A stretch of DNA of 53,111 nt from an uncultured Candidatus Saccharibacteria bacterium (GCA_964479375.1 CAYZKD010000004.1:1-53111); one strand, 5' to 3'. Positions 4,768 to 49,645 are shown, counted from the stretch's first letter. Notes: generated from the letters alone by a model not told the origin. A program made the numbers and translations.

Positions 4768-4820
4768 GATGCTTTTTATTTGTAAATAAATGCTTTTTTT
4801 GTAAACTAAAGAGTAAAGAT

Positions 4821-10851: not shown

Positions 10852-10939
10852 GGCAATTACCCTGACACCCCTGGCTTTAAGAAACCTCTCGGTTTCTTAC
10901 GTCGCTCCCGCTCCTATTTTCCAACACAGGGTAATTGCC
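10852..10939. repeat. Perfect 13-bp inverted repeat GGCAATTACCCTG / CAGGGTAATTGCC enclosing 62 nt
   Basis: Arms at 10852-10864 and 10927-10939. The right arm is part of motif R2. Confidence 0.8.
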
Positions 10940-28430: not shown

Positions 28431-28529
28431 GCTCTTTGAAAATTCTGTTAATTATTTAACAGGACATATTATAGAATTTGGTTTTTTAAAGTTGTTCTGG
28501 ATATTCCGAGATTTAATTCTCATTATTTT

Positions 28530-28560
<31 letters not shown>

Positions 28561-28833
28561 TGCGACGTGGATAAGGCATGCAAGTCGAATGTCCGTTTTG
28601 CGGACATGGCAAATGGGTTAGTAACACGTAGATACACGCCATTCGCATGGGAATAACCCCGAGAAATCGGGGCTAATACCCAATGGTCCCGTCTCTGACG
28701 GGTAAAGGCATTGAGCAATCAATGCCGGCGAGTGAGGGGTCTGCGTCCCATCAGCTTGTTGGTAGGGTAATGGCCTACCAAGGCTCTGACGGGTAGGGGG
28801 TGTGAGAGCATGATCCCCAACAATGGCACTGAG

Positions 28834-28865
<32 letters not shown>

Positions 28866-29385
28866 CGAGAATCTTCGACAATGGGCGAAAGCCTGATCGA
28901 GCGACGTCGCGTGCCCGAAGAAGCTCTTCGGAGTGTAAAGGGCTTTTCTAGAGGAAGAATCCGCCATTGGCGGATGACGGTACTCTAGGAATAAGGAGGT
29001 GCTAATCACGTGCCAGCAGCCGCGGTAATACGTGGTCTCCAAGCGTTATCCGGATTAATTGGGCGTAAAGAGTCCGTAGGCGTCTCGAAAAGTTTTTTGT
29101 TAAAGTTTCAGGGCTCAACCCTGAGAAGGCAAAGAAAACTGGCGAGATAGAGGGCGCTAGGGGCTGGGGGAACGGTCGGTGTAGGGGTGAAATCCGTTGA
29201 TATCGACCGGAACACCAAAAGCGAAGGCACCCAGCTGGGGCGACCCTGACGCTGAGGGACGAAAGCGTAGGTAGCGAAGAGGATTAGATACCCTCCTAGT
29301 CTACGCCGTAAACTATGGACACTGGCTATTTGAAGTGTCGACCCTTCAAGTGGCGAAGCTAACGCGTTAAGTGTCCCGCCTGGGA

Positions 29386-29417
<32 letters not shown>

Positions 29418-29884
29418 AGACGGGGCCTTACACAAGCGGTGGATCATGTGGCTTAATTCGACACTAAGCGAGGAACCTTACCAGGACTTGAAATTCTGCT
29501 GACATCCTGCTGAAAGGCGGGTTTCCTTCGGGACAGCAGGACAGGTGCTGCATGGTTGTCGTCAGCATGTGTCGTGAGACGCGCTCTTAAATGAGGTAAC
29601 ATGCGCAACCCTCATCCTATGTTTTAAGTGTCATAGGAAACTGCCCGGGATAACCGGGAGGAAGGTGAGGATGACGCCAAATCAGCATGGCCCTTTGACG
29701 TCCTGGGCTGCACACATGATACAATGGAACCGACAATGGGCGAAGCCGTAAGGTAGAGGTAATCCCATCAAACGGTTTCTTAGTCCGGACTGGGGTCTGC
29801 AATTCGACCCCACGAAGCTGGAATCGCTAGTAATCGCCAATCAGCCATGTGGCGATGAATATGTTTCTAAGGCTTGTACTCACC

Positions 29885-30289
29885 AAATAGATGCGCCTGG
29901 CAGATATATAGACCAGGGAGTTAAAATCTCCCTTTAATAGTCGAGGAATAGTCATTTATCGTGAGATAAGTGGCAGAGGATTCTAAGACAAATGGCAGCC
30001 CGAAGTATTTAACGAGGACCGATCCATGATTGGGTGGTGAGCATGGAGAAGGTAGCTACCATTACTCTAATTCGGGATGCCGGGAATGGCCCATATATCG
30101 ACCCAGGGAGATCTGACGTAGTATAACGAAACTAACGCTGCGTCAGAAGTCAGCTAGATCGTAGTACTTGGTATTATCAGTTAATACTGAGGAAGGATCT
30201 TCTCTAATGCTATGGCGTTAGAGCTCGCCGTATGCGGGAAATCTGCACGTACGGTGGGAACGTCACTGCTAAGTTTCTAGTAAACATTC
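29885..30289 (+). other. ORF-less 405-nt insertion in the 16S decoding-centre region, class unresolved
   Basis: Exon sequence CTTGTACTCACC | ... | GCCCGTCAC matches the conserved GTACACACCGCCCGTCAC only if 29885-30289 is removed. Confidence 0.7.
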
Positions 30290-30374
30290 GCCCGTCACGT
30301 CAAGCGAGCTGGGAATACCCGAAATCCCATCCTAGATGGGCTGAAGGTAGGCTCAGTGAGAGGGACGAAGTCGT

Positions 30375-31156
30375 TGGTGCAAACTGCACGTTGCGACCCT
30401 TGAGAGTAATTTCAAGGAAAAACTCGGCTATATGCTGGAAAAACTGAGAATTTAGGGTTACTTATGCTATAATAATAGAAAATGGAAAGTATAAGTAAAA
30501 ATACCACTAATGCAGTCAATCAGCAGGGAAGTTTTCTTGATTTTCCAGAAAACCCCTCAGAGACTACACGCCGAGCTCCTCTTTATCCAAAGGCAATCAA
30601 GGCTTATCTCCTTGGATGCTTACACGATGGGACCTATAGCTCTAATAAAAGATACCGGTTTTCCCAAAAGGGAACAAGGTGGCTTAAGGTCTTACGTAAT
30701 CTCTTTAAGAAGCTGGGTTATAATTCTTGGATATATTGTGAAAGGAAAGAGAGAGGTTTATGTTCTAGAAACGCTTGCTAAGTTTTTAGACATTTATTTC
30801 GATCCCCTGGAGTTAAGAAGTCGAGAAGAGAAAAAAGATTATATTAGGGGCTTCTTTGACGCCGAAGGCGGAATTCCTAAGGCGAAGGAAGATAGATTCT
30901 ATATCCAATTAACCCAAAGCGACAAAGAAAAGTTAAGCAAGATAAAAGATCTTCTCGTTCATTTAGGAATCGAGACAGGAAAGATCCATAATCCCAGCAA
31001 GAAGGTAGATCCTCATTACTGGAGGATTTACGTTCTGTCTGCTTCTCAGAAACGTTTTGTTAAAGAGATCGGATCTTGGCATCCGAGAAAAATAAGGACT
31101 TTGGAGAAGAGGATGGTGATATAGTCCATGCTCTATAGCGATATGGAGGTAACATG
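30375..31156 (+). mobile_element. Group I intron (782 nt) in the 16S 3' minor domain, splitting GAAGTCGT|AACAAGG
   Basis: The 5' exon ends in U and the intron ends in G. P1 forms between exon GUCGU and the intron guide GCGAC (30393-30397) with a U:G at the splice site. GATATAGTCC core motif at 31118-31127. Confidence 0.75.
30482..31124 (+). pseudogene. Double-motif LAGLIDADG homing endonuclease, frameshifted
   Basis: Motif 1 (YLLGCLHDGT) is in the frame of ORF 30482-30781. Motif 2 (IRGFFDAEGG) is in the frame of ORF 30510-31124. The frames switch near 30734-30738 (TGGATATATTGTG). Confidence 0.7.
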
Positions 31157-31323
31157 AACAAGGCACGGGTAGGGGAACCTGCTCGTGGATCATTTCAAAA
31201 AAAATTGTTTGGTTGACTGGGATTAATTTGTAAGAATTCTCAAATTAATCTCAAGGACGTTGGTCGATAGTCCACACTTTCGACCTATTCAGAACAACTT
31301 TAAGAAACCAAATTTTCAAAACT

Positions 31324-31347
31324 CCGCAGGCTTTCTGTGGTTTTTTT
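31324..31347 (+). terminator. Hairpin plus T7 downstream of 16S
   Basis: CCGCAG gctttc CTGTGG TTTTTTT. Confidence 0.6.
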
Positions 31348-31349
31348 GA

Positions 31350-31378
31350 TTGACCAGTGAACTTTTTTTTGCTAAAAT
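31350..31378 (+). promoter_or_regulatory. Promoter TTGACC-17-TAAAAT, 9 nt before the ATG at 31388
   Basis: Hexamers and spacing read directly. Confidence 0.6.
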
Positions 31379-31387
31379 TTTTAAAGT

Positions 31388-31891
31388 ATGGCAGTACCGA
31401 AAAAGATTACAAGCTTTTTGGATAAAAATAAGGTCAAGTATGGTTTAATAGAGCATAAGAAAGTTTTTACAGCTCAAGATAAGGCTGCGACTTTGAAGAT
31501 AAAGCCTGCCAAGGTGGCTAAAACCTTGGTGGTGAAGCTGGACAAGGAAGTGGTTTTGGCGGTCGTTCCGGCTCATAGGAACCTAGATAAGAATAAGTTT
31601 AAGAAGGTAGCCAGTAAATGGAGAAAAGGGCAGGATAAAAAAGCAGTAAAGAAGGTTTCCTTTGGGACAGAAAGGTGGATTAAGAATAATTTAACGGGAG
31701 CGAAGGCAGGGGTGGTTCCTCCTTTGGGGATTGTTTGGAGGTTGCCCACATTTGTTGACAATTCATTAATGAGAAATCCTAAAATTCTGATTAATTCCGG
31801 AGATTATAAAGTATCAGTTGAGATAACGCCGAATAACTTTAAAAAAGCGGTTCCGGAGATTGTAACAGGCTCTTTTAGCAAGGTAAAATAG
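31388..31891 (+). CDS. YbaK/EbsC-type aminoacyl-tRNA editing (deacylase) domain protein
   Basis: Has the overall YbaK-like pattern (FLDKNKVKYGLIEH..., VVPPLG). It lies inside the rRNA operon spacer. Confidence 0.65.
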   Translation: MAVPKKITSFLDKNKVKYGLIEHKKVFTAQDKAATLKIKPAKVAKTLVVKLDKEVVLAVVPAHRNLDKNKFKKVASKWRKGQDKKAVKKVSFGTERWIKNNLTGAKAGVVPPLGIVWRLPTFVDNSLMRNPKILINSGDYKVSVEITPNNFKKAVPEIVTGSFSKVK

Positions 31892-31896
31892 AGGAA

Positions 31897-31973
31897 GGGC
31901 GTGTAGCTCAGGCGGCAAGAGCGCGTCTCTGATAAAGACGAGGTCCCAGGTTCGAGTCCTGGCACGCCCACCA
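31897..31973 (+). tRNA. tRNA-Ile (anticodon GAT), CCA encoded
   Basis: Acceptor GGGCGTG/CACGCCC, anticodon loop CTGATAA, T-loop TTCGAGT. Confidence 0.92.
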
Positions 31974-32088
31974 GAAAAACTAGACCGGGTCTAGTTTTCA
32001 CAAAGGAGGTCGGGGAGATTGGGTATCTCCCTGTGTAGGAAATTATTCAAAACCGAGGGTTTTGAAGGAGCGAGTTTCTGCGAGCGAC

Positions 32089-32161
32089 GGGCCCGTAGTT
32101 CAGCGGCCAGAACGCCTCATTTGCAATGAGGAGGTCGTGGGTTCAATTCCCACCGGGTCCA
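32089..32161 (+). tRNA. tRNA-Ala (anticodon TGC), G3:U70 present
   Basis: Acceptor GGGCCCG/CGGGTCC, anticodon loop TTTGCAA, T-loop TTCAATT. Confidence 0.9.
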
Positions 32162-32264
32162 CTACGTTGAAGATATTAGAACCTTCTTTAAGCAGAATCC
32201 AGAGTTGGCTGGCGCAAATTTGTGTTGCTTTTGCGAATCGTCTAAAGAGCCTACATCTCATTTA

Positions 32265-33080
32265 TTATAATGGACTTTTAATATTTTTAAGATTGGGATT
32301 TGTTACTTGGGTATAGATTTGTGTCGTTCGAATGTTTTGATGGCCCAAAAGCTCTTGCACATACCTGACACTAACGCCGTTCTCTAATAAATGTGTCGCA
32401 AAGCTATGTCTTAAAGAATGGAAAGTAGCACCTTTTTTGATATTTGTCTTCCGGATCGCGTTTTCAAAAGCTTTTTGAACCGCTCTTTCTGTTAGTTTTC
32501 CGCCTCGTTCGCTTTCAAAAAAGTAGTCGCTTGGATTTTTGCCAGCGATTAAATTTTTAAGACCGGTTTTTATTTTATCCGGAAAGATAGTGATTCTTTC
32601 CTTTTTGCCTTTGGCATTCTTAAGATGGATAGTTAGTTCCTTTAAATTAACATCTTTTATTTTCAAATTGACAACCTCGCCGATCCTTAAACCGGCGCCG
32701 TAAGCCAAAGAGATTATCAATTTATGTTTTGAGTTCTTGATTACATCGATAATATTTTTGATTTCTTCTCTCGATAAAACAATTGGCAATTTTTTACTCC
32801 GTTTGGCGAATTTTAGGTTTATCTTTCGGGAAGTTTTCAATACTTCGCGGTAAAAAAACTTTATTGCGCCTAAGTAAAGGTTTACTGTTTGTGAAGAGTA
32901 ATTTTTGCGATGTTTATTTAATAAAAACTGCCCTATGTTTTCCTCGTCTATTTTTTCTAGATTAAACTTTTTAAAATCAAAATACTCTTTTAAACAGCCG
33001 AGATAAGCTTTTATAGTTTTGGAGCTATAATTCCTTAATTTTAATGCCTGTTCTGTTTGTTTTAAATATTCTTGTTTCAT
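32265..33080 (-). CDS. Tyrosine recombinase (271 aa), IntI/Xer-like but lacking the IntI-specific insertion
   Basis: N-terminal SAM-like domain (YSSKTIKAYLGCLKEYF), AYGAGLRIGEV, HSLRHSFATHLL, LLGHQNIRTTQIYTQV, and a C-terminal NIKSPL. Confidence 0.85.
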   Translation of the reverse strand: MKQEYLKQTEQALKLRNYSSKTIKAYLGCLKEYFDFKKFNLEKIDEENIGQFLLNKHRKNYSSQTVNLYLGAIKFFYREVLKTSRKINLKFAKRSKKLPIVLSREEIKNIIDVIKNSKHKLIISLAYGAGLRIGEVVNLKIKDVNLKELTIHLKNAKGKKERITIFPDKIKTGLKNLIAGKNPSDYFFESERGGKLTERAVQKAFENAIRKTNIKKGATFHSLRHSFATHLLENGVSVRYVQELLGHQNIRTTQIYTQVTNPNLKNIKSPL

Positions 33081-33136
33081 AATTTTACAAAGAATGGTAA
33101 GCTAAAACTGTTAATAATTGGTTACTAGGGCCTCTA

Positions 33137-33165
33137 TCAACAATTGTACATTGAGTTCGTATAAT
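33137..33165 (+). promoter_or_regulatory. Promoter-like TCAACA-17-TATAAT pointing into the cassette array
   Basis: Read directly. It lies between the recombinase start and the attI-like junction. Confidence 0.35.
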
Positions 33166-33219
33166 ATGCAACAAAGGACCGGCTGCTTACATTCAATTCG
33201 CATAGAAACGAGTTAAGTG
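33166..33219. other. attI-like junction: collapsed repeat (ATGCAAC-aaa-GGA...CTTACATTCAATTCG) followed by GTTAAGTG
   Basis: Resembles repeat B with its L''-L' core deleted. GTTAAGTG is the reverse complement of the R'' box of repeat A. Confidence 0.45.
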
Positions 33220-33279
33220 AAATTGCCCAAAGCCCTTACATGTGATTAAATTTATATAATATCAAATAATTTTCTTATT

Positions 33280-33972
33280 ATGATGGCAGAAAAAATTAAC
33301 AGACCTTTTGTTTTCCTTTGTACGGGAATGTCTTTAGATGGTAAACTCGCAACATCTGAAAGGAAACAAACCGAAATAGCAACCAATGATGACAAAGAAA
33401 TGATGTATGAATGCAGAATAAAAGCTGATGCAGTCATGGTTGGCGGAAGAACTTTGTTTTTGGATGATCCTGGGCTTACTGTAAAAACAAAAGAAAGACA
33501 AAACCAAAGATTGAAACTTGGCAAAACCAAAAATCCTTTCAAGGTTGCGATTGTTTCTGATGTCGCAAATTTAAAACCAACAGGGGATTTCTTTCATAGA
33601 GGAGATACAAAGAAAATAATTTTTACAACTGAAAAATCACCTGAATCAAAAATCAATGAGTTAAAATATTTTTGCGAAATTTATGTTTACGGAAAACAAA
33701 AGGTAGATTTAAAACAAGCATTATCGAAACTTTATGAATTGGGTGTGAAATCATTAATGGTTGAAGGTGGTGGAGAGTTAATTTTTTCGTTATTGAAAGA
33801 TAATTTAGTTGATGAAATCAATCTTAAAGTTGGAAATTTAATTATTGGAGGAAGAAATTCTCCAACCTTTTGTGATGGCGATGGTTTTCTGCAAGATACT
33901 GCTAAAAAAGTTAAATTGATTGATTTAATCAAAAAAGAAAATTATTTGATTCTAAAGTATAAAGTCGAATAA
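33280..33972 (+). CDS. RibD C-terminal-domain / dihydrofolate-reductase-like reductase (cassette 1)
   Basis: GMSLDGKLAT, ADAVMVGGRT and LMVEGGGEL. Confidence 0.75.
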   Translation: MMAEKINRPFVFLCTGMSLDGKLATSERKQTEIATNDDKEMMYECRIKADAVMVGGRTLFLDDPGLTVKTKERQNQRLKLGKTKNPFKVAIVSDVANLKPTGDFFHRGDTKKIIFTTEKSPESKINELKYFCEIYVYGKQKVDLKQALSKLYELGVKSLMVEGGGELIFSLLKDNLVDEINLKVGNLIIGGRNSPTFCDGDGFLQDTAKKVKLIDLIKKENYLILKYKVE

Positions 33973-34046
33973 ACGGGCTTTGGGCAACTTGCTCACTATC
34001 GTTCGCGCCTCGCTGCGCTCTCACTCCATTTCATTCCGTTCGGGTC

Positions 34047-34142
34047 ACTTAACAAGGATTATGAGAGAAATGCCTCAGCTCGGCATTTCTCCAAATTTGC
34101 TCCACTTCGTTCCGCAAACTTCTCATAATCCTAACGTTATAT
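34047..34142. repeat. attC-like palindrome A (96 nt)
   Basis: ACTTAAC-aa-GGATTATGAG ... CTCATAATCC-taac-GTTATAT, with inner hairpin AAATGCC/GGCATTT. Confidence 0.6.
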
Positions 34143-34202
34143 TCAATATTATTCTTGCCCCTTAACGATAAATTTATAATCATTCAAATTTAACTAATAC
34201 TT

Positions 34203-34718
34203 ATGACATCAAAAGCCCTTATACTTGTAGATTTCGAAAAAGAATGGACTGATAAAAATTCAGATTATTTTGTTGGAGATGTTTCCGAGTTAATCGAAAA
34301 AACCAACAAACTTATTGATTTTTGTAGAAAAAATAATTACAAAATAATCTTCACTACGCACATCGAAAAAGATTCTAATAAAGCGTTTGTTGAAAACTCC
34401 GAAAATGTGGAAATTATCGATAAAATCAATAAACAAGATTCCGATGTGCTAATAAAGAAAAATAAAATCAGTCCATTCTTTAAAACAGATTTGGATAAGC
34501 ATCTTGAAGGAATTGATGAAATTGTCATCGCTGGAATTTTGACTAATTTGTGTGTTAGAAGCTTGGCTCAAGATGCTTATGATAGAGATTTTGAAATCAA
34601 ACTTATCAAAGATTGTTGTCAGGCTTTTGACAAAGAAACTCACAATTTCACAATCAAAGATTTGAAAGCTACAAGAGAAGAAATTGAATTCTTAAATTTG
34701 AATGAGTTTATTAAATAG
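34203..34718 (+). CDS. Isochorismatase-family cysteine hydrolase (cassette 2)
   Basis: ALILVDFEKEW and IAGILTNLCVRSLAQDAYDRDF. Confidence 0.8.
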   Translation: MTSKALILVDFEKEWTDKNSDYFVGDVSELIEKTNKLIDFCRKNNYKIIFTTHIEKDSNKAFVENSENVEIIDKINKQDSDVLIKKNKISPFFKTDLDKHLEGIDEIVIAGILTNLCVRSLAQDAYDRDFEIKLIKDCCQAFDKETHNFTIKDLKATREEIEFLNLNEFIK

Positions 34719-34721
34719 AAC

Positions 34722-34880
34722 GGGGCAAAAATAATACTCTGAAATTTCCCTTCGGGACGTTGCACTAAATTTCAGCCCTTCGAGGAATGTAACAAAGGAT
34801 ATGAGGTTACGAAGTCTTGCAGACTTCTCCACCCAAATTGCTCCCTGCGGTCGCAACTTCTCATATCCCCGATGTTATAT
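34722..34880. repeat. Repeat B: outer arm, CTGAAATTT/AAATTTCAG hairpin and attC-like palindrome (34787-34880)
   Basis: ATGTAAC-aaa-GGATATGAG ... CTCATATCC-ccgat-GTTATAT. Roughly 90% identical to repeat C. Confidence 0.65.
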
Positions 34881-34955
34881 TCAATTCCGCTCCCTCTCTC
34901 AAATGCTTATGTAATTCAATGATTTTATAAAATCCTACAATCTTATATAATTATA

Positions 34956-35771
34956 ATGATGAAAATAAAAGAAATTCAAGCATCCTCAATAATCACTAAA
35001 TCAAATTTGCCCGATGCAGATTATGTCATAAATCCTTATATTGGCTGTATGCATTCTTGTTTGTATTGCTATGCAAGATTTATGAAAAGATTTACTGGGC
35101 ACACAGAAGAATGGGGCAAATTTATAGATGTAAAAGTAAATGCGCCCGATTTAATTCCTGCCAAAACTTCAAAATATAAAGGAAAATCAATTTTTCTCGC
35201 TTCTGTAACTGACGCATATTTACCTCTTGAAAGAAAATACCAACTTACTCGCAAAATTTTAGAAAAACTTATTCCTCTACAATCAAACTTAGGGGTTCAA
35301 ACAAAATCGGATTTGGTTGTGCGAGATATTGATTTGCTCAAGCAATTCAAAAATTGCGAAGTTGGTTTTACTATTACTACTTTGGATGATAATTTGCGTA
35401 AAGAAATTGGGCCATTTACTTCGTCAGTTCAAAATAGAATTAAAGCGCTCGAAAAATTGAAAGAAGCAGGAATTAAATCTTATGTCTTTATTGGTCCCAT
35501 ATTGCCATTTTTGACAGATTGGAAAAAGATAATTCTTGAAACAAAACATTGCTCTGATTTATACATGTTTGAAAATTTGAATGTTAGAGGCAATATTTGG
35601 GACTCTGTCAAAAAATGGCTCAATGAAAAACATCCAAAATTATTAGAAGATTATGAGCGCATTTACTTTTCTAAAAGTGATTATTGGGATAAAGCTGAGG
35701 AAGAAATAAAACAATTCTGCAAAGAGCAAAGGGTAGAATATAGAATTTATTTTCATCATGGAAAGAAGTAG
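34956..35771 (+). CDS. Radical SAM protein (SplB/DNA-photolyase-like family, COG1533-like) (cassette 3)
   Basis: CMHSCLYC (CxxxCxxC), about 270 aa. Confidence 0.75.
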   Translation: MMKIKEIQASSIITKSNLPDADYVINPYIGCMHSCLYCYARFMKRFTGHTEEWGKFIDVKVNAPDLIPAKTSKYKGKSIFLASVTDAYLPLERKYQLTRKILEKLIPLQSNLGVQTKSDLVVRDIDLLKQFKNCEVGFTITTLDDNLRKEIGPFTSSVQNRIKALEKLKEAGIKSYVFIGPILPFLTDWKKIILETKHCSDLYMFENLNVRGNIWDSVKKWLNEKHPKLLEDYERIYFSKSDYWDKAEEEIKQFCKEQRVEYRIYFHHGKK

Positions 35772-35773
35772 TC

Positions 35774-35933
35774 GAGGGAGGGGGCGGAACTCTGAAATTT
35801 CCCTTAGGGACGTTGCACTAAATTTCAGCCCTTCGGGGAATATAACGAGGGATATGAGGTTACGAAGTCTTGCAGACTTCTCCACCCAAATTGCCCCCTT
35901 CGGTCGCAACTTCGTTAAATTCCGATGTTGTAC
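35774..35933. repeat. Repeat C: as B, but with a decayed L' arm (attC-like part 35840-35933)
   Basis: ATATAAC-gag-GGATATGAG ... CGTTAAATTCC-gat-GTTGTAC. Confidence 0.6.
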
Positions 35934-36116
35934 GCAATTCAAAAAATATTTTTCTTAATGTAAGATAAAGATAGTCTTTCAAAGGGGAATAAATTTGATT
36001 TTTTCTAAAAAACAGAGGGGGGTAATAATGTGTTTTCTCCACTCCGTTACGAAAACAATTATTTAAAAACACAAAATTTATAAATTATGCATAATATTTA
36101 CTTTTTATAAAAAAAT

Positions 36117-37100
36117 ATGGCAACAAAGAACACAACAAGCAATAATCCAAAAATATATTTTCTTGAAGTTGAGGCAGAAGATAAAAAACTAGTGAAAGAA
36201 GAATTTCCTCAAGCAAGAATATTTAATAAAATTTTATCTGAAAAAGAGATTATTAAACAATGCAAAGAAGCAGAGGTTATTTGTCCTTTTATCTATAGCA
36301 AGATCACCCGCAAGGTTATTGAATCTTTGTCTAATTTGAAGCTTATTATTACCAGAAGCGTAGGATATGATCACATAGACTTGATGGCTGCAAAGGAAAA
36401 AGATATTGTTGTTTGTAATGTCCCTGATTATGGATCCCATGTTATAGCTGAACATGTTTTTGCCTTACTTCTTTCTGGTTTAAGGCATATTATTGAAGGC
36501 GATGAAAGAGTTGAACGAGATAAAAAATTTTATTTTTCGGGCCTAAGAGGAATAGCGCTCAAGGGAAAAAATTTAGGTATTATCGGAACCGGCAAAATTG
36601 GCAAGAATGTTGCGCGTATAGCAAGCTCTGGATTTTTAATGAATGTTTTTGCTTACGACCCCAATCTCAACAAGAATCTTGCTCTAGAAAATCATTTTTC
36701 TTATACTGATTTGAAAACTATTTGGAAGGAATCCGATGTTATTACATTACATTGCCCCCTTCTTGAGAATACAAAACATTTAATAAATAAAAAAAGTATT
36801 TCTGCCATGAAAGAGGGAGTTGTAATAGTCAACACTTCAAGGGGAGGGGTAATTGATACAGGCGCTTTAATCCAAGGCTTAAAATCTAAAAAGATTTCTT
36901 ATGCACTTTTAGATGTTTTAGAGCATGAAAATAATATTAAAGAGAATAAAGAACTTTTAGAACTCCCAAATGTGATTGTTACGCCACATATTGCTTTTTA
37001 TGCTGACGATTCTATGGGGAAGATGTATAGCGAAGCCTTTGCCACTATAAATTCATTTATACAGAAAAAGGATATAGTAAATCAAATCAAAGGAGTATAA
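36117..37100 (+). CDS. D-isomer-specific 2-hydroxyacid dehydrogenase (D-lactate dehydrogenase-like)
   Basis: GIIGTGKIGKNVA, and the NTSRGG...TPHIAFY pattern. Confidence 0.8.
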   Translation: MATKNTTSNNPKIYFLEVEAEDKKLVKEEFPQARIFNKILSEKEIIKQCKEAEVICPFIYSKITRKVIESLSNLKLIITRSVGYDHIDLMAAKEKDIVVCNVPDYGSHVIAEHVFALLLSGLRHIIEGDERVERDKKFYFSGLRGIALKGKNLGIIGTGKIGKNVARIASSGFLMNVFAYDPNLNKNLALENHFSYTDLKTIWKESDVITLHCPLLENTKHLINKKSISAMKEGVVIVNTSRGGVIDTGALIQGLKSKKISYALLDVLEHENNIKENKELLELPNVIVTPHIAFYADDSMGKMYSEAFATINSFIQKKDIVNQIKGV

Positions 37101-37320
37101 TAAAGAGTTCTGAAAAATGAAATTCATCCCTAACCCCTCTTTTATTTTTCAAATAGAAAAAGTCAAATTTATAAGAATAAAGGAAAAATTGGAAAGGCTA
37201 AAGAAGAGAAAAATCTTTCAAGCAGATACTGCCAGAAGAAGAATCTTGAGTTTTCCACAGCCCCCCTTTTTTTGTGATTTTGTTAATGATATACTTAAAT
37301 AATAATTAAAGGTCGGCTTA

Positions 37321-38022
37321 ATGCTAAACTTTATTAAAAATATGTTATTAGACTGGTACGAAATTACAATTTCAGCCCTCAAGGATCTTTATGTGGGCCT
37401 TATTGACTTTACACCCAAGTTGATAGGCGCGTTAGTGATTTTCCTGATTGGTTGGATTGTTTCCGTCGGACTGGGTAAGTTGATCGCTGAGATCTTGAGG
37501 CGCGCAAAATTTAATCGCCTTTTTGAAAGAGAAGGAATGAAATCAGCCCTGGAAAAAGCAGATTTTAAAGTTGACGCAGCAGGATTCATTGGCGCTGTAT
37601 TTAAATGGGTCTTGGTGATCGTTTTCTTGATGGTTGCAGTAGAGATACTTGGATTCCAGCAGTTTGCTGCCTTTCTGTCCGACGTTCTCTCTTACCTACC
37701 CAACGTAGTAGTGGCTGCGTTAATCTTTGTGGTGGCTGTGATTATTGCCGATCTTCTGGAAAAAGTGGTTAGGGCTGCAGTAGAAAGTACCAAGGTAGGC
37801 TATGGCCACATAACCGGAATAATCGTCAAGTGGTCCATTTGGATTTTTGCGATTCTAGCTATTCTGTTTCAATTAAGGATAGCACCGGAATTAATTCAAA
37901 CTCTGCTAACCGGTGTTGTCGGTTTAATTGTATTAGCAGGAGGTCTTGCCTTTGGACTTGGTGGAAGGGATATAGCGGCTGAGATTCTTCGCGATGTAAG
38001 AAATAAGTTCAGGGGAGAATAG
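37321..38022 (+). CDS. Polytopic membrane protein with repeated TM-helix units (mechanosensitive-channel-associated TM_helix-like)
   Basis: About six hydrophobic helices. No catalytic motif recognised. Confidence 0.5.
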   Translation: MLNFIKNMLLDWYEITISALKDLYVGLIDFTPKLIGALVIFLIGWIVSVGLGKLIAEILRRAKFNRLFEREGMKSALEKADFKVDAAGFIGAVFKWVLVIVFLMVAVEILGFQQFAAFLSDVLSYLPNVVVAALIFVVAVIIADLLEKVVRAAVESTKVGYGHITGIIVKWSIWIFAILAILFQLRIAPELIQTLLTGVVGLIVLAGGLAFGLGGRDIAAEILRDVRNKFRGE

Positions 38023-38049
38023 GAAAAAATAGATCTATCTTAGAAATTC

Positions 38050-38089
38050 AAACAGACCAAGAATCTTATTTCTTGGTCTGTTTGTTTTT
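38050..38089 (+). terminator. Rho-independent terminator
   Basis: 13-bp stem AAACAGACCAAGA/TCTTGGTCTGTTT followed by GTTTTT. Confidence 0.8.
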
Positions 38090-38352
38090 ACGGGGTAGTG
38101 AAAAGGAAACGATAATTTCAGGACAGAGGGAAATAGAAATTTCAGGGTGGAGAAGACTCACAATTAATTCAAGGCCTGACATTTCTACTTTGCTCTACCC
38201 TGACAATATCGCGTTGGGCTAACAGTACAAGACTGAGGCTTGACAGGTCTCTGTGTTTTGTTAACATAGGGAATAGTTATGAACAGGAAGAATGAATGTC
38301 AAAAAACACAAAGCGGTTAACTCCACTCTGTATTTGATAATAACCAAAGGAG

Positions 38353-38374
38353 AACCGCTTTAGAGCGGTTTTTT
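38353..38374 (+). terminator. Terminator-like hairpin with an alternative upstream partner
   Basis: AACCGCTT tag AGCGGTT TTTT. The 5' arm can also pair with AAAGCGGTT at 38310-38318. Confidence 0.45.
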
Positions 38375-40872
38375 GATAAAAAGAAAGAAGGATGTACCTT
38401 GAAAATTAAAGACAGACAATCTAGCTTATTAAAAAGCCAAACTTTCTTATCGTTTTGTAGAAGAAGTTTTTAAAAGCAGATGGTGGATGCCTTGGGATAT
38501 CGAGGCGATGAAGGACGTGGCGTGACTGCGATAATCCTCGGGAAGGTGTCATGCAACCTTTGATCCGGGGGTTTCCAAATGGGGAAACCCGTTCCGCCTC
38601 AAAGCGGAACATCTCACATTTATTGTGAGAGGCGAACCTGCTGAAGTGAAACATCTCAGTAAGCAGAGGAAAAGAGAACGAACTAGTCCGCATTTTATTT
38701 CTATTCATTTGAAGAAAAATAAAGTGTGGCGTTATTCCCTTAGTAGCGGCGAGCGAAAAGGGATCAAGCCCAAACCCTGTTTTATACAGGGGGTTGTAGG
38801 AGGATAGCGTCGGGAGTGTTCCGCAAATCATTTATTTGAAATGCGGAATCTTCACCGAGGGAGAGCACTTAGGTAGAGCAATTAGACGAAGCTTCCTGGA
38901 AAGGAGCACCACAGAAAGTGAAAGTCTTGTAGTTTAAAGTTGCTTTACGCTCCTTGCTATCTGCCGCTTTTGCGGCAACCTGAGTACCATGAGTAAAGAT
39001 AACCTTGTGGGAAACATCCCGGACTAACCGGGAAAGGCTAAATACTCGATATCACCGATAGTGAACCAGTACCGTGAGGGAAAGGTGAAAAGTAGGGGGG
39101 TAACCCCGGTGAAATAGAACCTGAAACCATCTTGCTTACAAGGACTAGGAACCCCGTTTTTACGGGGCGACTGGGTGCCTATTGAAGAATGAGCCAACGA
39201 GTCTGAGTATTTAGTTTTGTCTAAGGGGTTCTGCCCCGAAGGCACAGCGAAAGCGAGTGTTAATAGCGCGTCCTTTTACTGAATACTCAGGACCCGAAGC
39301 CAGGCGAGCTTGCCATGGCCAGGGTGAATTCCACAGAAATGTGGAAGGAGGCCCGAACCTTTAGATGCTGCAACATCTTAGGATGAGCTGTGGTAAGAAG
39401 TAAAAAGCTAATCGAGCCTGGGAATAGCTGGTTCTCCCCGAAATAGCTTTAGGGCTAGCGGCATGTATAGATTTTGGAGGTAGAGCACTGGATGGAATTA
39501 CGTGGGCTTTGCCCAGTCTTTCCAACCAAACTCCGAATGCCGAAATTTTAAGCATGTTAGTCAGACTGCGGGGGCTAAGCTCCGTGGTCGAAAGGGAAAC
39601 AGCCCAGATCCTTATCTAAGGTCCCTAAACTTTTCTCTTTATGAGGAACCTCGCTTCGGCGGGGGGACTAAGTGTACTTAAGGAAGTGAATTTCCTAAGA
39701 TAGTTAGGAGGTTAGCTTAGAAGCAGCTATCCTTTAAAAAATGCGTAACAGCTTACTAATTAAGGAGATTCGCGCTAAAGATTCACGGGACTAAGTCCAG
39801 TACCGAAGATAGGATTAAATACTCAATCCGTTGAGTATTTAAGGTAGGGGAGCGCCCTTTATTCGCTGAAGGTTCGCTGAAAGGCGGGCTGGAGAGTAAA
39901 GGGGTGAGAATGTTGGCATGAGTAACCGCAATCCCGTTGAGAACACGGGACACCGAAATCCTAAGGTTTCCTTGGCAATGGCAATCAGCCAAGGGTTAGG
40001 CGGGCCTAATTTCGTCAACCGAAAGGTGGCGAGAGATGGACAGTCGGTTAATATTCCGACCCTCCGCTGGATTTTTTCTCAAAGAGACGGAGACTTGTAT
40101 TATATGCGGATTATTGGATTTCCGTCCTTGCCCTGAGATTTCTCAAGGGGTGAGGGGCAGCCTTGCTTCGGCTTGGTGAACATATAAGAGCAGTCTTCCC
40201 AGAAAATCTTTGAGAAAGCCAAATCTAGTTGGATCCGTACCGCAAACCGACACAGGTAGGATGGCGCTAGTACGCTAAGGTGAACGAGTGAAAGCTCCTG
40301 AAGGAATTCGGCAAAACAGCAGGCGTAACTTCGGAATAAGCCTTTCCCGCCTTAAGGCGGGACGCAGCAAAAGACCCCTGGCGACTGTTTATCAAAAACA
40401 CAGGTCCCTGCCAACTCGTAAGAGGATGTATAGGGGCTGAGGCCTGACCAGTGCTGGAACGTTAAGGCCGTCGGTTTCTGCTTTTTGTAGAAGCTGAATG
40501 GTTGAAGCGCCAGTGAACGTCGGCAGTAACTATAACTGTCCAAAGGTAGCGTAATCCCTTGCCGGGTAAGTTCCGGCCCGCATGAAAGGCTTAACGACCA
40601 GGGGACTGTCTCCAGGAGCAGCTCGGTGAAAATGCAATACCGGTAAAGATGCCGGTTACCCGCGGCTAGACGGAAAGACCCCGGGAGCTTTACTGAAGCT
40701 AGACATTGGATTTTGGTGTTAGATGCGCAGTGTAGGTGGGAGATTTTGATCCCTGTTTCTCGGAACAGGGGGAGTCGCCAATGAGACACCACTCTTTTAA
40801 CGCCTCAATTCTAACCCTCCGTTTAACGGGGGAAACATTGTTTAGCGGTCAGTTTAAGTGGGGCACTTGCCT

Positions 40873-41365
40873 TAAAGATTGGCTTCCTCCAAGTCAATCA
40901 GGGGGCCTTCGCAATGTGAATTGCGAAGCAAACTTGGCTATATGCTGGAACATCCGTGGTATCCGACGCTACTTTGCTTATGGCAGAGTAAAAATGCGTT
41001 CGGTGCGGACAATCAGCAGGGAAGAAAATTAACACATAGTGATTTTCCCCTCAGAGACTATACGCCAAGCCATTAGTAAATAATGGGTGGAATGATAAAA
41101 TCAAATTAGCCAACCCTTTTTCTAATGTGATGATATAGTCCGAACTTCTGGGCGACCAGAAGCATCGCTCAAGTGATGAATGAGCGAGACCTAAAATTAT
41201 GTACTCAAAAAAGATTTCAGCGAGAAATAGTTGTTGGAACCTTGTTGAAAAGGTATTTATTGGAGAATATACGTTTTATCGGAACCGACTGAAAAATTTG
41301 CTGAAATGATAAAACCAATAATCAATCAAATACCTTCGATGAGTTATAAACTAGGGAACGAATTG
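40873..41365 (+). mobile_element. Group I intron 1 of 23S (493 nt), just 3' of the P-loop GGGGC sequence
   Basis: Joined exons give GGGGCACTTGCCT|CCTAAAAGGTAATGGAGG, the same length as the conserved GGGGCGGTCTCCT|CCTAAAGAGTAACGGAGG. The 5' exon ends in U and the intron ends in G. GATATAGTCC at 41132-41141. Confidence 0.7.
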
Positions 41366-41607
41366 CCTAAAAGGTAATGGAGGCGTTTAAAGGTCGGCTA
41401 TTCCGCGATGGAAATGCGGAAGATAGGATAAAGCCATAAGCCGGCTTTACAGCGAGCAGGATATTGCGAGCTGTTGGGAAACCAGAACTTAGTGAACCGA
41501 CGGATTTTAGTAGAAAATCCGGAGATCATCAGCTAAAAGTTACCCCGGGGATAACAGGCTAGTAGGGCCCGAGAGTTCACATCAACGGCCCTGTTCGGCA
41601 CCTCGAT

Positions 41608-42014
41608 AGAATAGCCGATTGTCGAGGCAATAAACCAACTCATAACGGAGGAAGCCATATATAAAGACCCAGCAAACATGTTAGGACAAATATATATGGT
41701 CAACACCGTGGGAAGTTGCGAAAATAAGTATTGACACAAGAAATGGATTCCAATTAAAAAATCACTTTTGCTTACAAAGATGCAAAGAGGTTTAATTTTT
41801 GGATCGGATTTTGGAGAAAGTTAGTCAATGTAATTAGTCCGCACATTATCCTTTCGATAATGTGTAAAATAGGTTTTCGCAACCCCGTAACGACTGGATT
41901 CCTGCAAAAAGCAGGATGAAGATAGTTTTTTAAACAAAACTATAAAACGTTGGTATGCAGAAGGACATCTGCATAAAGGTATAGTCTACGCTATTAGTAA
42001 TAATAGGATTAGTG
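41608..42014 (+). mobile_element. Group I intron 2 of 23S (407 nt) in CACCTCGAT|GTCGGCTC (peptidyl-transferase region)
   Basis: P1 forms between exon CUCGAU and intron GUCGAG (41621-41626) with U:G. The intron ends in G. GGTATAGTCT at 41978-41987. Confidence 0.75.
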
Positions 42015-42071
42015 GTCGGCTCACCACATCCTGGGGGTGGAGCAGCTCCCAAGGGTTTGGCTGTTCGCCAA

Positions 42072-42347
<276 letters not shown>

Positions 42348-42692
42348 CGTGAGACAGGTTGGTCCCTATCTACCGTGGGCGCAGAGTCTTGAGGGAAGTT
42401 GGTCCTAGTACGAGAGGACTGGACTGAACTGACCTCTGGTGTACCAGTTGTCCTGCCAAGGGCACTGCTGGGTAGCTAAGTCAGGCAGGGATAAGCGCTG
42501 AAGGCATATAAGCGCGAAGCCCCTCCCAAGATAAGGACTCTTAGATTCCTCGAAGACGACGAGGTTGATAGGCTGCAGGTGTAAGCACTGCGAAGTGTTG
42601 AGCCAAGCAGTACTAATAAATCATTACTTATTTTTGCAAAACATTTAAGAAAGGTTGGCCTTTTAATGGACTAGATTGTCACTATAGAGATT

Positions 42693-42820
42693 GTGGCTAC
42701 TATAAGGGAGCCAGACTGGAAGTGCTCCACCCGATCCCATACCGAACTCGGAAGTGAAATCTTCCAAGGCCGATGATAGTCCTTATGGGCGAAAGTAGGT
42801 AGCTCCCTTATAGTGTCCAC
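42693..42820 (+). rRNA. rrf: 5S rRNA
   Basis: Helix I ACTATAAGGGAG/CTCCCTTATAGT, CCCATACCGAACTCGGAAGTGAAA, and GCCGATGATAGT. The ends are approximate. Confidence 0.85.
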
Positions 42821-48703: not shown

Positions 48704-49645
48704 ATGAAGAACAATGGTTTACCAAACTTAGACGACTTTCTTCTTCATCTTCAATCTGACAACTATTCAGAAGAAACTCTTTATAATTATGAACGGGATT
48801 TGGAGGTATTCCAAAGTTTTCTAGAAGAATCCGGGATTAAGTTTTCTAATGTGAGCAAAAAGACAATTCTTAATTATAAGGCATATCTAATATCTAGAGA
48901 TCGCAGAACGGTTAAATCGAAAAAAAGAGGGAGGAAACTGGGTGGCTTTTCTGTAAATCGCATGCTCTCAGCCCTGCGCTCTTATCTTATGTTCTTGGGA
49001 GATATGGACTACGTAGCGCCTATTTCTCCCACAAGTGTAGAATTAGTAAAAACCATTAAGAAGCATCCCCGCGTCTCTGAATTCGAAGAGATAGTAAAGT
49101 TAATCGAGTCACCCACCAAGATTGAAAAAAACAAAAAAGTCGCTATCAGGAACCGAGCAATGCTGGAAGTATTGTTTTCTACGGGGATGAGGATTTCAGA
49201 GCTGGTAGGCCTTAGGAAAGATGCCATTGACAAACAAGGAAGAATATTTATCCGGGGGAAAGGAAAAAAAGAAAGATTTGTCTATCTTACCCCTCGCGCT
49301 CAGAAACATATAAAAAAATATCTAGGGGTAAGAGAGAGCTCTAGTTCTTATTTATTTGTCCCTCTCAAAGGAAGAAATGCAAGAAAAAGAGACAAGAAGG
49401 TTTCGACTAATTGTCTGCAAGAGAGAGTTAAAAAATATCGAGAACTGTCAGGCATCAACCTTCCTCTCTCTTGCCATTCTATTAGACACGCTTTTGCGAC
49501 CTATTTGGCTGAAAAGGGTGCAAATCCCGCTGCTATCCAAATACTTTTAGGCCATGAATCTTTAGACACTACTACCAGATATGTAAACCCCTCTGATAGA
49601 TACGCAGAAAAGACGCACCATAAATATCATCCGCTGAAAGATTAG
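48704..49645 (+). CDS. Tyrosine recombinase, XerC/XerD-like
   Basis: STGMRISEL, HSIRHAFATYL and LLGHESLDTTTRYV. Confidence 0.85.
   Translation: MKNNGLPNLDDFLLHLQSDNYSEETLYNYERDLEVFQSFLEESGIKFSNVSKKTILNYKAYLISRDRRTVKSKKRGRKLGGFSVNRMLSALRSYLMFLGDMDYVAPISPTSVELVKTIKKHPRVSEFEEIVKLIESPTKIEKNKKVAIRNRAMLEVLFSTGMRISELVGLRKDAIDKQGRIFIRGKGKKERFVYLTPRAQKHIKKYLGVRESSSSYLFVPLKGRNARKRDKKVSTNCLQERVKKYRELSGINLPLSCHSIRHAFATYLAEKGANPAAIQILLGHESLDTTTRYVNPSDRYAEKTHHKYHPLKD

Follow-up and report, generated by a model that had tools for sequence, protein, structure and literature searches.

The 53,111-nucleotide contig of an uncultured Candidatus Saccharibacteria bacterium (GCA_964479375.1, CAYZKD010000004.1:1-53111) was analysed as a whole and is referred to here as the window. 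It carries a tyrosine recombinase gene on the minus strand and, divergently, an array of four plus-strand single-gene cassettes, three of which end in attC-like palindromes. Sequence comparison with related loci supports the interpretation of this region as a chromosomal integron-like cassette platform of a Patescibacteria (Candidate Phyla Radiation, CPR) bacterium with a recombinase other than IntI. An integron-like platform had been proposed in a first-pass annotation made from the sequence alone, and the distribution of the sites, their hairpins and the variation between arrays were all in its favour. Comparison of relatives established a conserved junction, alternative cassettes at this junction and a cassette common to separate arrays, where the breakpoints are at G|TT. 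At the same level of evidence the cassettes followed an own-end rule, the sites lay on one strand beside the recombinase gene, the L stem covaried and the IntI insertion was absent from the recombinase. Site-specific exchange of cassettes at these sites is probable on these grounds, with less confidence attached to the single-strand details. Coordinates of the features are collected in Table 1.

The junction between the recombinase side and the array was sampled with an exact 22-mer from the block conserved upstream of the recombinase gene, which led to 106 metagenomic contigs and 76 unique junctions. Alignment columns were conserved through AACGAG|TT(A), dropped over the following four positions, rose again at (G/C)AAAT and showed no conservation beyond. 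Seventy distinct first-cassette 5' ends stood behind the conserved attI-like block, and one identical 41-nt left half was joined to up to 10 different cassettes. Many contigs began or ended within about 150 nt of the block, as is usual for assemblies where a shared segment meets variable ones. Cassette 2, the second of the window array, was 91.8% identical over 703 nt to positions 117-819 of L053 (L numbers denote the loci compared), and G|TT was the precise point at which the homology set in. In L053 it was first in the array, after a different attI left half and with a different cassette next to it, and the L boxes of the two copies differed by a compensated indel (GGATATGAG/CTCATATCC versus GGATTATGAG/CTCATAATCC). 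Cassette content and order thus varied between relatives as they do in integrons, with a G|TT crossover and pairing to the cassette's own R' as further integron features.

The attI-like site could be read as a Xer-type core of a left arm, a central region of 6-7 nt and an R arm of the form TTAnnnnAAAT, with the crossover placed after G33212 (G33212|TT), about 130 nt 5' of the recombinase start codon. The parsing of positions 33196-33223 as core-like is our own reading. A block ending in ...TTCGTATAGAAACGAG|TTAnnnnAAAT was kept upstream of the recombinase gene in relatives down to about 52% protein identity, including contigs labelled Berkelbacteria, Shapirobacteria, Gracilibacteria, Moranbacteria and Liptonbacteria, and the attI block was found 5' of the recombinase in nearly all related loci. 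Insertion at an attI that adjoins the integrase gene, in one orientation, is a feature of integrons that was recovered both in the 76 junctions and in the cassettes, as the longest open reading frame (ORF) read away from attI in 48 of 50 unique cassettes. Conservation extended over about 70 nt 5' of the attI core, and a second copy of the TTCGTATA repeat was present there. The top promoter-like match in this region (33137-33165, plus strand) was within the conserved block and directed into the cassettes, with promoter-like matches in the region being no commoner than in shuffled sequence.

Other observations on the attI block included four loci (L060, L086, L134 and L141) in which it stopped right after ...TATAATATGCAACAAAA and was followed by unrelated sequence. 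This new sequence was common to L086 and L141, the latter also being without a recombinase gene on the other side. The TATAATATGCAACAAAA breakpoint may be a second insertion point or may reflect a larger element using the upstream TTCGTATAA repeat. The final ~90 nt of L146, right after the attI junction, were Nextera adaptor sequence (CTGTCTCTTATACACATCTGACGCTGCCGACGA) and represent an assembly artefact in the public record. The R arm and the L'-spacer-R' half are presumably like the arms of E. coli dif and ColE1 cer.

The attC-like sites were identified by scanning with a k-mer index, by chain tracing and with a site covariance model (R1), in place of a simple scanner for R and L boxes that was dropped as unspecific (11 matches per strand versus about 3 for both strands of shuffled sequence together). 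With its filters switched off, a search of the window with R1 on both strands returned A, B and C only in 53 kb, with nothing else above 13 bits. In 37 loci around recombinase homologues (471 kb) all 42 matches shared the strand of the cassettes and lay on their side of attI, and none were found in the non-CPR distant homologues L030-L041. A further 113 matches were obtained from 100 metagenomic loci (477 kb), 110 of them on the cassette strand and side and the other three on the same strand upstream of an attI-like block. Overall, 155 of 155 sites in 137 related loci were on the cassette strand and 152 were on the cassette side of attI, and arrays reached at least seven sites (L037). The element is thus not scattered through the sequence but kept to a single strand beside attI. 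The sites escaped direct-repeat searches of L001, L004 and L005, since their sequences differ from one cassette to the next. In L085 (293-925) and L115 (1010-1129) attC-like sites were located 5' of an attI-like block, where the recombinase gene would be expected, and this layout could be an attI copy captured in an array or a rearranged platform.

The 50 unique cassettes had a median length of 739 nt, a median leader of 68 nt and a median gap of 51 nt between stop codon and R''. In the window the three plus-strand ORFs, their functional assignments and the unit lengths given in the first-pass annotation were all reproduced, the units measuring 924, 738 and 1053 bp between G33212, G34136, G34874 and G35927. 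The ORFs began 68, 67 and 82 nt after the G, in agreement with the distances then reported. Cassette 4 shared its leader (positions 1-184, 79%) and the first 74 nt of its trailer (positions 1186-1259, 89%) with cassette 2 of L001, while the ORFs differed. A leader motif, GAGGGG(G)TAnnnnGTGTTTTCTCCnCTCCGnTACGAAAAC, was present in the window (36018-36075) and in L001, L004, L010, L024, L068 and L104, where it preceded unrelated ORFs in seven different cassettes; it comprises a Shine-Dalgarno-like run and a hairpin or short GTG-started ORF. Searches of Rfam at gathering and permissive thresholds gave no match for the palindromes or the cassette leaders.

In the window cassettes the sequence after G|TT was complementary to the R'' of the same cassette and not to the adjacent R''. 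The cassette 5' end and the cassette's own R'' were complementary at 9/9 positions in cassette 1 (GTTAAGTGA / TCACTTAAC) and cassette 3 (GTTATATTC / GAATATAAC) and at 8/9 positions in cassette 2. Among 21 cassettes from 11 genomes the R'' core matched the own R' at a mean of 4.4 of 5 positions versus 2.4 of 5 for the adjacent R', with the own R' better in 18 cassettes and worse in none (sign test 3.8e-6). An own-end match of R'' and R' is the classic hallmark of cassettes in integrons and puts the exchange point at or next to G|TT. It would also be expected if the cassettes pass through a circular form. The pairing continued beyond the R box as a cassette-specific outer stem of 13-16 nt between the 5' leader and the sequence just past the stop codon. 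Of 49 unique cassettes, 37 scored above the 95th percentile of mismatched pairings for this complementarity (median score 13 versus 7, p 6e-21), a feature that is not known from canonical attC sites. Junctions made by joining a cassette 3' end to its own 5' end folded 5-14 kcal/mol better than array junctions. The predicted circular junctions are ...CTCATAATCCTAACG|TTAAGTGAAATTGCCC for cassette 1, ...CTCATATCCCCGATG|TTATATTCAATATTATTC for cassette 2 and ...AAATTCCGATG|TTATATTCAATTCCGC for cassette 3.

An alignment of 32 sites from many genomes gave the order nnnnnTAAC, A, L'' (nnGnATAnnnG), hairpin 1, CCAAAT, hairpin 2, AACTTC, L', a spacer of 3-5 nt and G|TTAnnnnAAT. The interval between L'' and L' was not free-form: it held two hairpins with a conserved CCAAAT between them, and AACTTC, likewise conserved, preceded L'. 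Site length was about 95 nt in the window and 69-200 nt in relatives, and this length, the box order and the AAC/GTT ends fit attC; spacing and inner architecture differed from the canonical R''(RYYYAAC)-L''...L'-R'(GTTRRRY) of 57-141 nt. The L'-spacer-R' half was like the attI core (CGTATAGAA-ACGAG-TTA...), and both resembled Xer core sites. The 12-bp L stem was 96% paired, with double changes at 8 of 12 pairs and far lower values in shuffled and slid controls, figures that are inflated by the sites having been picked for an L stem. Independent support for the stem comes from the many model matches outside the training set and from the attI-start control, in which 37 of 70 attI starts led to an own-complementary R'' and an L stem within 3 kb, compared to 1 of 455 control starts.

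Palindromes with the boxes described in the first-pass annotation were present at 34047-34142 (A) and 34787-34880 (B), and both folded far better as single-stranded DNA than shuffled sequence (z-scores of -5.8 and -6.2 for A and -3.7 and -4.2 for B, top and bottom strand respectively). Site C folded weakly (-2.5 and -2.1). The third palindrome was likewise confirmed as present, and sites B and C were 89% identical over 152 nt; the description of its L' as decayed did not hold, since one 8-nt L' block (TCATATCC) had been swapped as a unit for GTTAAATT at 35906-35913, which pairs with the R'' of C itself. Site C therefore looks rebuilt rather than eroded and resembles the product of an aberrant exchange more than that of point decay. 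Fold energies gave no consistent preference for the top or the bottom strand.

The recombinase has a Phage_integrase domain and SAM-like N-terminal domains, as the earlier assignment of this minus-strand ORF to the tyrosine recombinases would predict. Its best NCBIfam family was XerA_Arch (NF040815; 233 bits, above the cut-off of 220), which places it within the Xer family. The second-best was integrase_gron (TIGR02249; 215 bits, below the cut-off of 265, with the match split in two pieces), followed by XerC (186 bits) and XerD (181 bits). The other curated integron-integrase model, PRK15417, scored 128 bits versus a cut-off of 435. The closest solved structures were nearly equal, VchIntIA (2A3V) at 151 bits and Pyrococcus XerA (4A8E) at 148 bits; a further XerA structure (5HXY) was as close as IntI, and E. 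coli XerD was far weaker (79 bits). The alignment to 2A3V was in two pieces and skipped IntI residues about 213-239, so that about 30-40 IntI residues were without a counterpart where the IntI-specific insertion sits (271 amino acids versus 320). The additional IntI domain around patch III was absent in both the 2A3V and TIGR02249 alignments, in keeping with the earlier remark that the enzyme is not a canonical IntI. Motifs aligned to the catalytic residues of XerD were all kept (GLRIGE, HSLRHSF, LLGH and QIYT). Identity was 70-86% across many CPR contigs, and the nearest relatives were all from metagenome-assembled genomes (MAGs) of Patescibacteria or Parcubacteria. Six loci with a CPR-type recombinase and attI (L008, L016, L018, L022, L023 and L026) were in MAGs labelled Actinomycetota, Gammaproteobacteria, Bdellovibrionales or Desulfotomaculum, labels that are likely due to mis-binning.

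These features could also describe a housekeeping Xer enzyme whose dif is the conserved site, with the cassettes as elements like integrative mobile elements exploiting Xer (IMEX) piled up at dif. The XerA family score is consistent with this, as are the high conservation of the protein, an attI-like site that reads as an 11-6/7-11 Xer core, the presence of dif next to xer in XerS/difSL and XerH/difH, and an R arm (TTATGTGAAAT in relatives) that resembles the XerD arm of E. coli dif. Against it, the window encodes a second, more XerC/D-like recombinase at 48704-49645, so that the array recombinase is not the sole Xer-type enzyme of the genome. The site in L004 is about 6 kb from dnaA with no hint of a terminus, the second TTCGTATA repeat and the conserved sequence upstream exceed a plain dif, and uniformly oriented, compact single-gene units are typical of integrons. 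The explanation was downgraded on account of the second gene and the proximity of dnaA and is considered unlikely; it differs from the cassette platform mainly in the other roles given to the enzyme and not in cassette movement. The second gene was located at about 49 kb, the point at which the rise in the window's cumulative GC skew ends, and its product could be a housekeeping Xer near a terminus.

The platform of the window lies in a ribosomal RNA operon with the order 16S, tRNA-Ile, tRNA-Ala, recombinase (minus strand), five plus-strand genes, 23S and 5S. The GC content was 0.31-0.34 across 33-37 kb versus about 0.42 in the flanks, which agrees with the AT-rich segment noted by eye before. 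Among 40 non-redundant related loci, 8 had a tRNA-Ala gene past the recombinase 3' end, the anticodon being TGC, GGC or CGC. A genomic island that had been inserted at tRNA-Ala through an integrase of its own, with the palindromes as unrelated intergenic structures, would account for this position and for the low GC content, and in L001 a 48-nt direct repeat surrounds the recombinase gene and array. No such tRNA-side repeat was found past the array in the window or in loci other than L001/L002, and a comparison of the 700 nt past the recombinase with the 9 kb after attI in the window gave no repeat. Variation among relatives starts at the attI G|TT and not at the tRNA, and the palindromes follow the own-end rule and mark exact breakpoints. 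We regard the island as quite improbable.

Neighbours of the platform in other genomes showed related arrangements. It was within the rRNA operon spacer in the window (28524-42811) and in the Liptonbacteria MAG L021 (1236-10886), with the gene order tRNA-Ala, recombinase, cassettes, 23S and 5S in both, and in L111 the 16S and tRNA genes were a few kb away from the attI block. The loci with a tRNA-Ala neighbour were the window, L001, L005, L009, L021, L054, L061, L067, L111 and L139, always in the same orientation, and in L054 and L111 the tRNA gene abutted the attI block with no recombinase gene in between. The platform itself may target or travel with tRNA-Ala. In L001 the two copies of the 48-nt repeat (4769-4816 and 10878-10925, 90% identity) flank the recombinase gene and its array of four cassettes, as though the platform had gone in as a single unit, an arrangement seen in the L001/L002 lineage only. 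In the rRNA-spacer platforms the cassettes point in the direction of rRNA transcription. The cassettes may therefore be transcribed with the pre-rRNA, given that the platform recurs co-oriented in the spacer, and the complementary stems that flank them might double as processing stems. Insertions of LAGLIDADG genes and group I introns, as found in this operon (Table 1), are common in CPR rRNA operons.

Table 1. Features of the window (positions counted from the first nucleotide of the contig)
Feature	Position	Strand	Description
16S rRNA	28524-29934		rRNA operon of the window
LAGLIDADG endonuclease ORF	30510-31124		between 16S rRNA and the tRNA genes
tRNA-editing-domain gene	31388-31891		adjoins the LAGLIDADG ORF
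tRNA-Ile, then tRNA-Ala(TGC)	32089-32162 (tRNA-Ala)	+	directly past the 3' end of the recombinase gene
Tyrosine recombinase	32265-33080	-	271 amino acids, XerA/IntI-like; Pfam Phage_integrase 7.7e-43, SAM-like N-terminal domains
attI-like region	33081-33223	+	conserved block including the 22-mer 33154-33175
attI Xer-type core, as read here	33196-33206; 33207-33212; 33213-33223		left arm (ATTCGCATAGA); central region (AACGAG); R arm (TTAAGTGAAAT)
Five protein genes		+	between recombinase and 23S rRNA
Cassette 1	33213-34136	+	RibD_C / archaeal-type riboflavin pyrimidine reductase ORF 33280-33972; own-end stems 33213-33221 with 34045-34053 and 33220-33235 with 33975-33990
attC-like site A	34042-34147	+	R'' 34045-34053, L'' 34056-34065, L' 34122-34131, G|TT 34136; R1 72 bits
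Cassette 2	34137-34874	+	isochorismatase-family ORF 34203-34718; outer stem 34147-34161 with 34722-34736
attC-like site B	34782-34885	+	R'' 34785-34793, L'' 34797-34805, L' 34860-34868, G|TT 34874; R1 69 bits
Cassette 3	34875-35927	+	radical SAM ('mobile pair B'-like) ORF 34956-35771; outer stem 34885-34900 with 35774-35789
attC-like site C	35835-35938	+	G|TT 35927; R1 40.6 bits, E 6e-7, outside the training set
Cassette 4 remnant	35928 to about 37190	+	D-2-hydroxyacid dehydrogenase ORF 36117-37100; attC-like end lost
23S rRNA	from 38460		interrupted by two group I introns; 5S rRNA next
Group I introns in 23S rRNA	40876-41162; 42093-42339		
Second tyrosine recombinase	48704-49645	+	313 amino acids, XerC/XerD-like; XerC 196, XerD 189, integrase_gron 73 bits

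A canonical integron with a divergent IntI would fit the way in which the parts are laid out and the boxes ordered, as well as a crossover at G|TT, the form of the cassettes and the integrase_gron match. It has very little to recommend it given the missing IntI-specific insertion, a score under the family cut-off, an R box of 9-12 nt instead of 7, a conserved architecture between the L boxes and stems that reach into cassette-specific sequence. It is scarcely credible that the palindromes are repeats like repetitive extragenic palindromic (REP) sequences, transcription terminators or RNA-stability elements with no role in recombination since, stable hairpins directly downstream of ORFs though they are, no terminator-like sites were found by a terminator scan at A, B or C and no T tracts follow the palindromes, they are confined to the array and to one strand in the window and in relatives alike, and RNA elements would not account for the own-end rule or the precise junctions.

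For the integron-like platform the following mechanism is proposed. A cassette starts with the R arm of its own site and closes with R''-A-L''-[hairpin-CCAAAT-hairpin]-AACTTC-L'-spacer-G. With one strand folded, R''/R' and L''/L' would form the two binding arms of an Xer-like core whose centre is partly unpaired, and the recombinase bound at the R arm, presumably the enzyme encoded next to attI, would exchange a single strand at G|TT. Replication would resolve the product, as for integron attC x attI recombination and for CTX phage at dif. Recombination between two attC-like sites would free the cassette as a circle carrying the whole site, lengthened by the cassette-specific outer stem, and recombination between attI and the attC-like site would insert the circle beside the recombinase gene. 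The attI left arm and central AACGAG would stay put, the L' and spacer would go with the upstream cassette and the R arm with the downstream one. With the left part of attI constant and L', spacer and R arm mobile, exchange would therefore take place at the boundary of central region and R arm, which in Xer-type sites is where the monomer bound at the R arm cuts the bottom strand.

Use of a folded strand is indirectly suggested by the stable folds, by the covariation of the L stem and by central regions that are not identical between attI (AACGAG) and the attC-like sites (for example CTGACG, GAAACG and CCGATG). These differences argue against a full exchange of both strands and for a single exchange resolved by replication. 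The strand that would fold is indicated by geometry only.

Several points weigh against this interpretation. What ties the recombinase to the sites is their position alone. Site C and cassette 4 are damaged, and the array is possibly in part a fossil. Double-stranded recombination at inverted binding sites would likewise give paired arms and is compatible with the sequences, and the selection of sites for an L stem bears on the pairing figures as stated above. The other genomes were sampled over at most 10 kb on each side of the recombinase, so that arrays elsewhere in those genomes are possible.

No description of this system was found in a literature search whose coverage excluded most subscription-journal papers, and a prior description is possible. 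The terms Patescibacteria, Parcubacteria, Saccharibacteria and CPR are unused in the IntegronFinder 2.0 paper, as are Patescibacteria and CPR in the paper on archaeal integrons. The definition of integrons rests on IntI, whose extra domain is regarded as necessary for recombining folded attC sites. We consider the odds even that the platform represents an undescribed, phylum-wide integron class of CPR/Patescibacteria, in which the recombinase stands between archaeal-type Xer and IntI without the domain thought necessary, the sites are folded mimics of an Xer core that add a conserved three-way junction and outer stems specific to the cassette, and the whole is a living intermediate between Xer/dif and integrons.

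If true, integron-style gene capture would be older or easier to evolve than thought, and the system would be a tangible example of what may have linked Xer/dif recombination to integrons. A large pool of mobile genes would go unseen by standard integron finders, since these depend on the IntI domain, and CPR bacteria, with their tiny genomes and dependence on hosts, would have a dedicated route for the gain and swapping of accessory genes. The cargo in the window consists of metabolic enzymes (a riboflavin-type reductase, an isochorismatase-family hydrolase, a radical SAM protein and a 2-hydroxyacid dehydrogenase), and more than a hundred related contigs from the environment carry the same system. 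With the exact junction sequences in hand, cassette exchange is directly testable.

Among known systems the platform is closest in layout to integrons, including sedentary chromosomal and archaeal ones. Shared features are a divergent tyrosine recombinase by attI, co-oriented, compact and mostly single-ORF cassettes, R''-L''...L'-R' palindromes, a G|TT crossover at which the cassette carries the TT... of its own R', conserved unpaired bases beside L' and arrays that vary between relatives. In contrast to integrons, the recombinase is without the IntI-specific domain and under the integron-integrase cut-off, the R box is 9-12 nt (GTTAnnnnAAAT) and ATA is conserved at the core of the L box. What is a variable terminal structure in integron sites is here a conserved junction of two hairpins with CCAAAT, the centre is asymmetric (1-3 nt versus 3-6 nt) and cassette-specific outer stems appear in the circular form. 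The hosts are CPR bacteria, and the platform is often by tRNA-Ala or in the rRNA operon spacer.

The use of XerCD at dif by CTX phage, an IMEX with a folded single-stranded attP, suggests how an Xer-family enzyme free of the IntI domain could use a hairpin that mimics an Xer core with an unpaired centre. As in CTX-type integration, exchange of one strand would be left to replication and insertions are stacked in tandem at one site. The units here differ from CTX in being single genes of about 0.4-1.7 kb and not phage genomes, and the site is by a dedicated recombinase gene in a genome with a second XerC/D-like gene, with extra repeats upstream of attI.

Single-recombinase Xer systems (archaeal XerA/dif, XerS/difSL and XerH/difH) are like the platform in that XerA is the best family for the recombinase and the site adjoins the recombinase gene. 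Unlike the platform, their sites resolve chromosome dimers and are without arrays of exchangeable cassettes with hairpin sites. The pdif modules of Acinetobacter are likewise discrete gene modules between Xer-type sites that move between contexts, whereas pdif sites are plain 28-bp duplex sites of plasmids, without a long palindrome, a recombinase-adjacent attI or uniform orientation. The enzyme is thus closest in type to the single-recombinase Xer proteins and the logic of its substrates is closest to integrons and CTX-type hairpin integration; the system works like an integron yet falls outside that group on two counts, the IntI domain and the family score.

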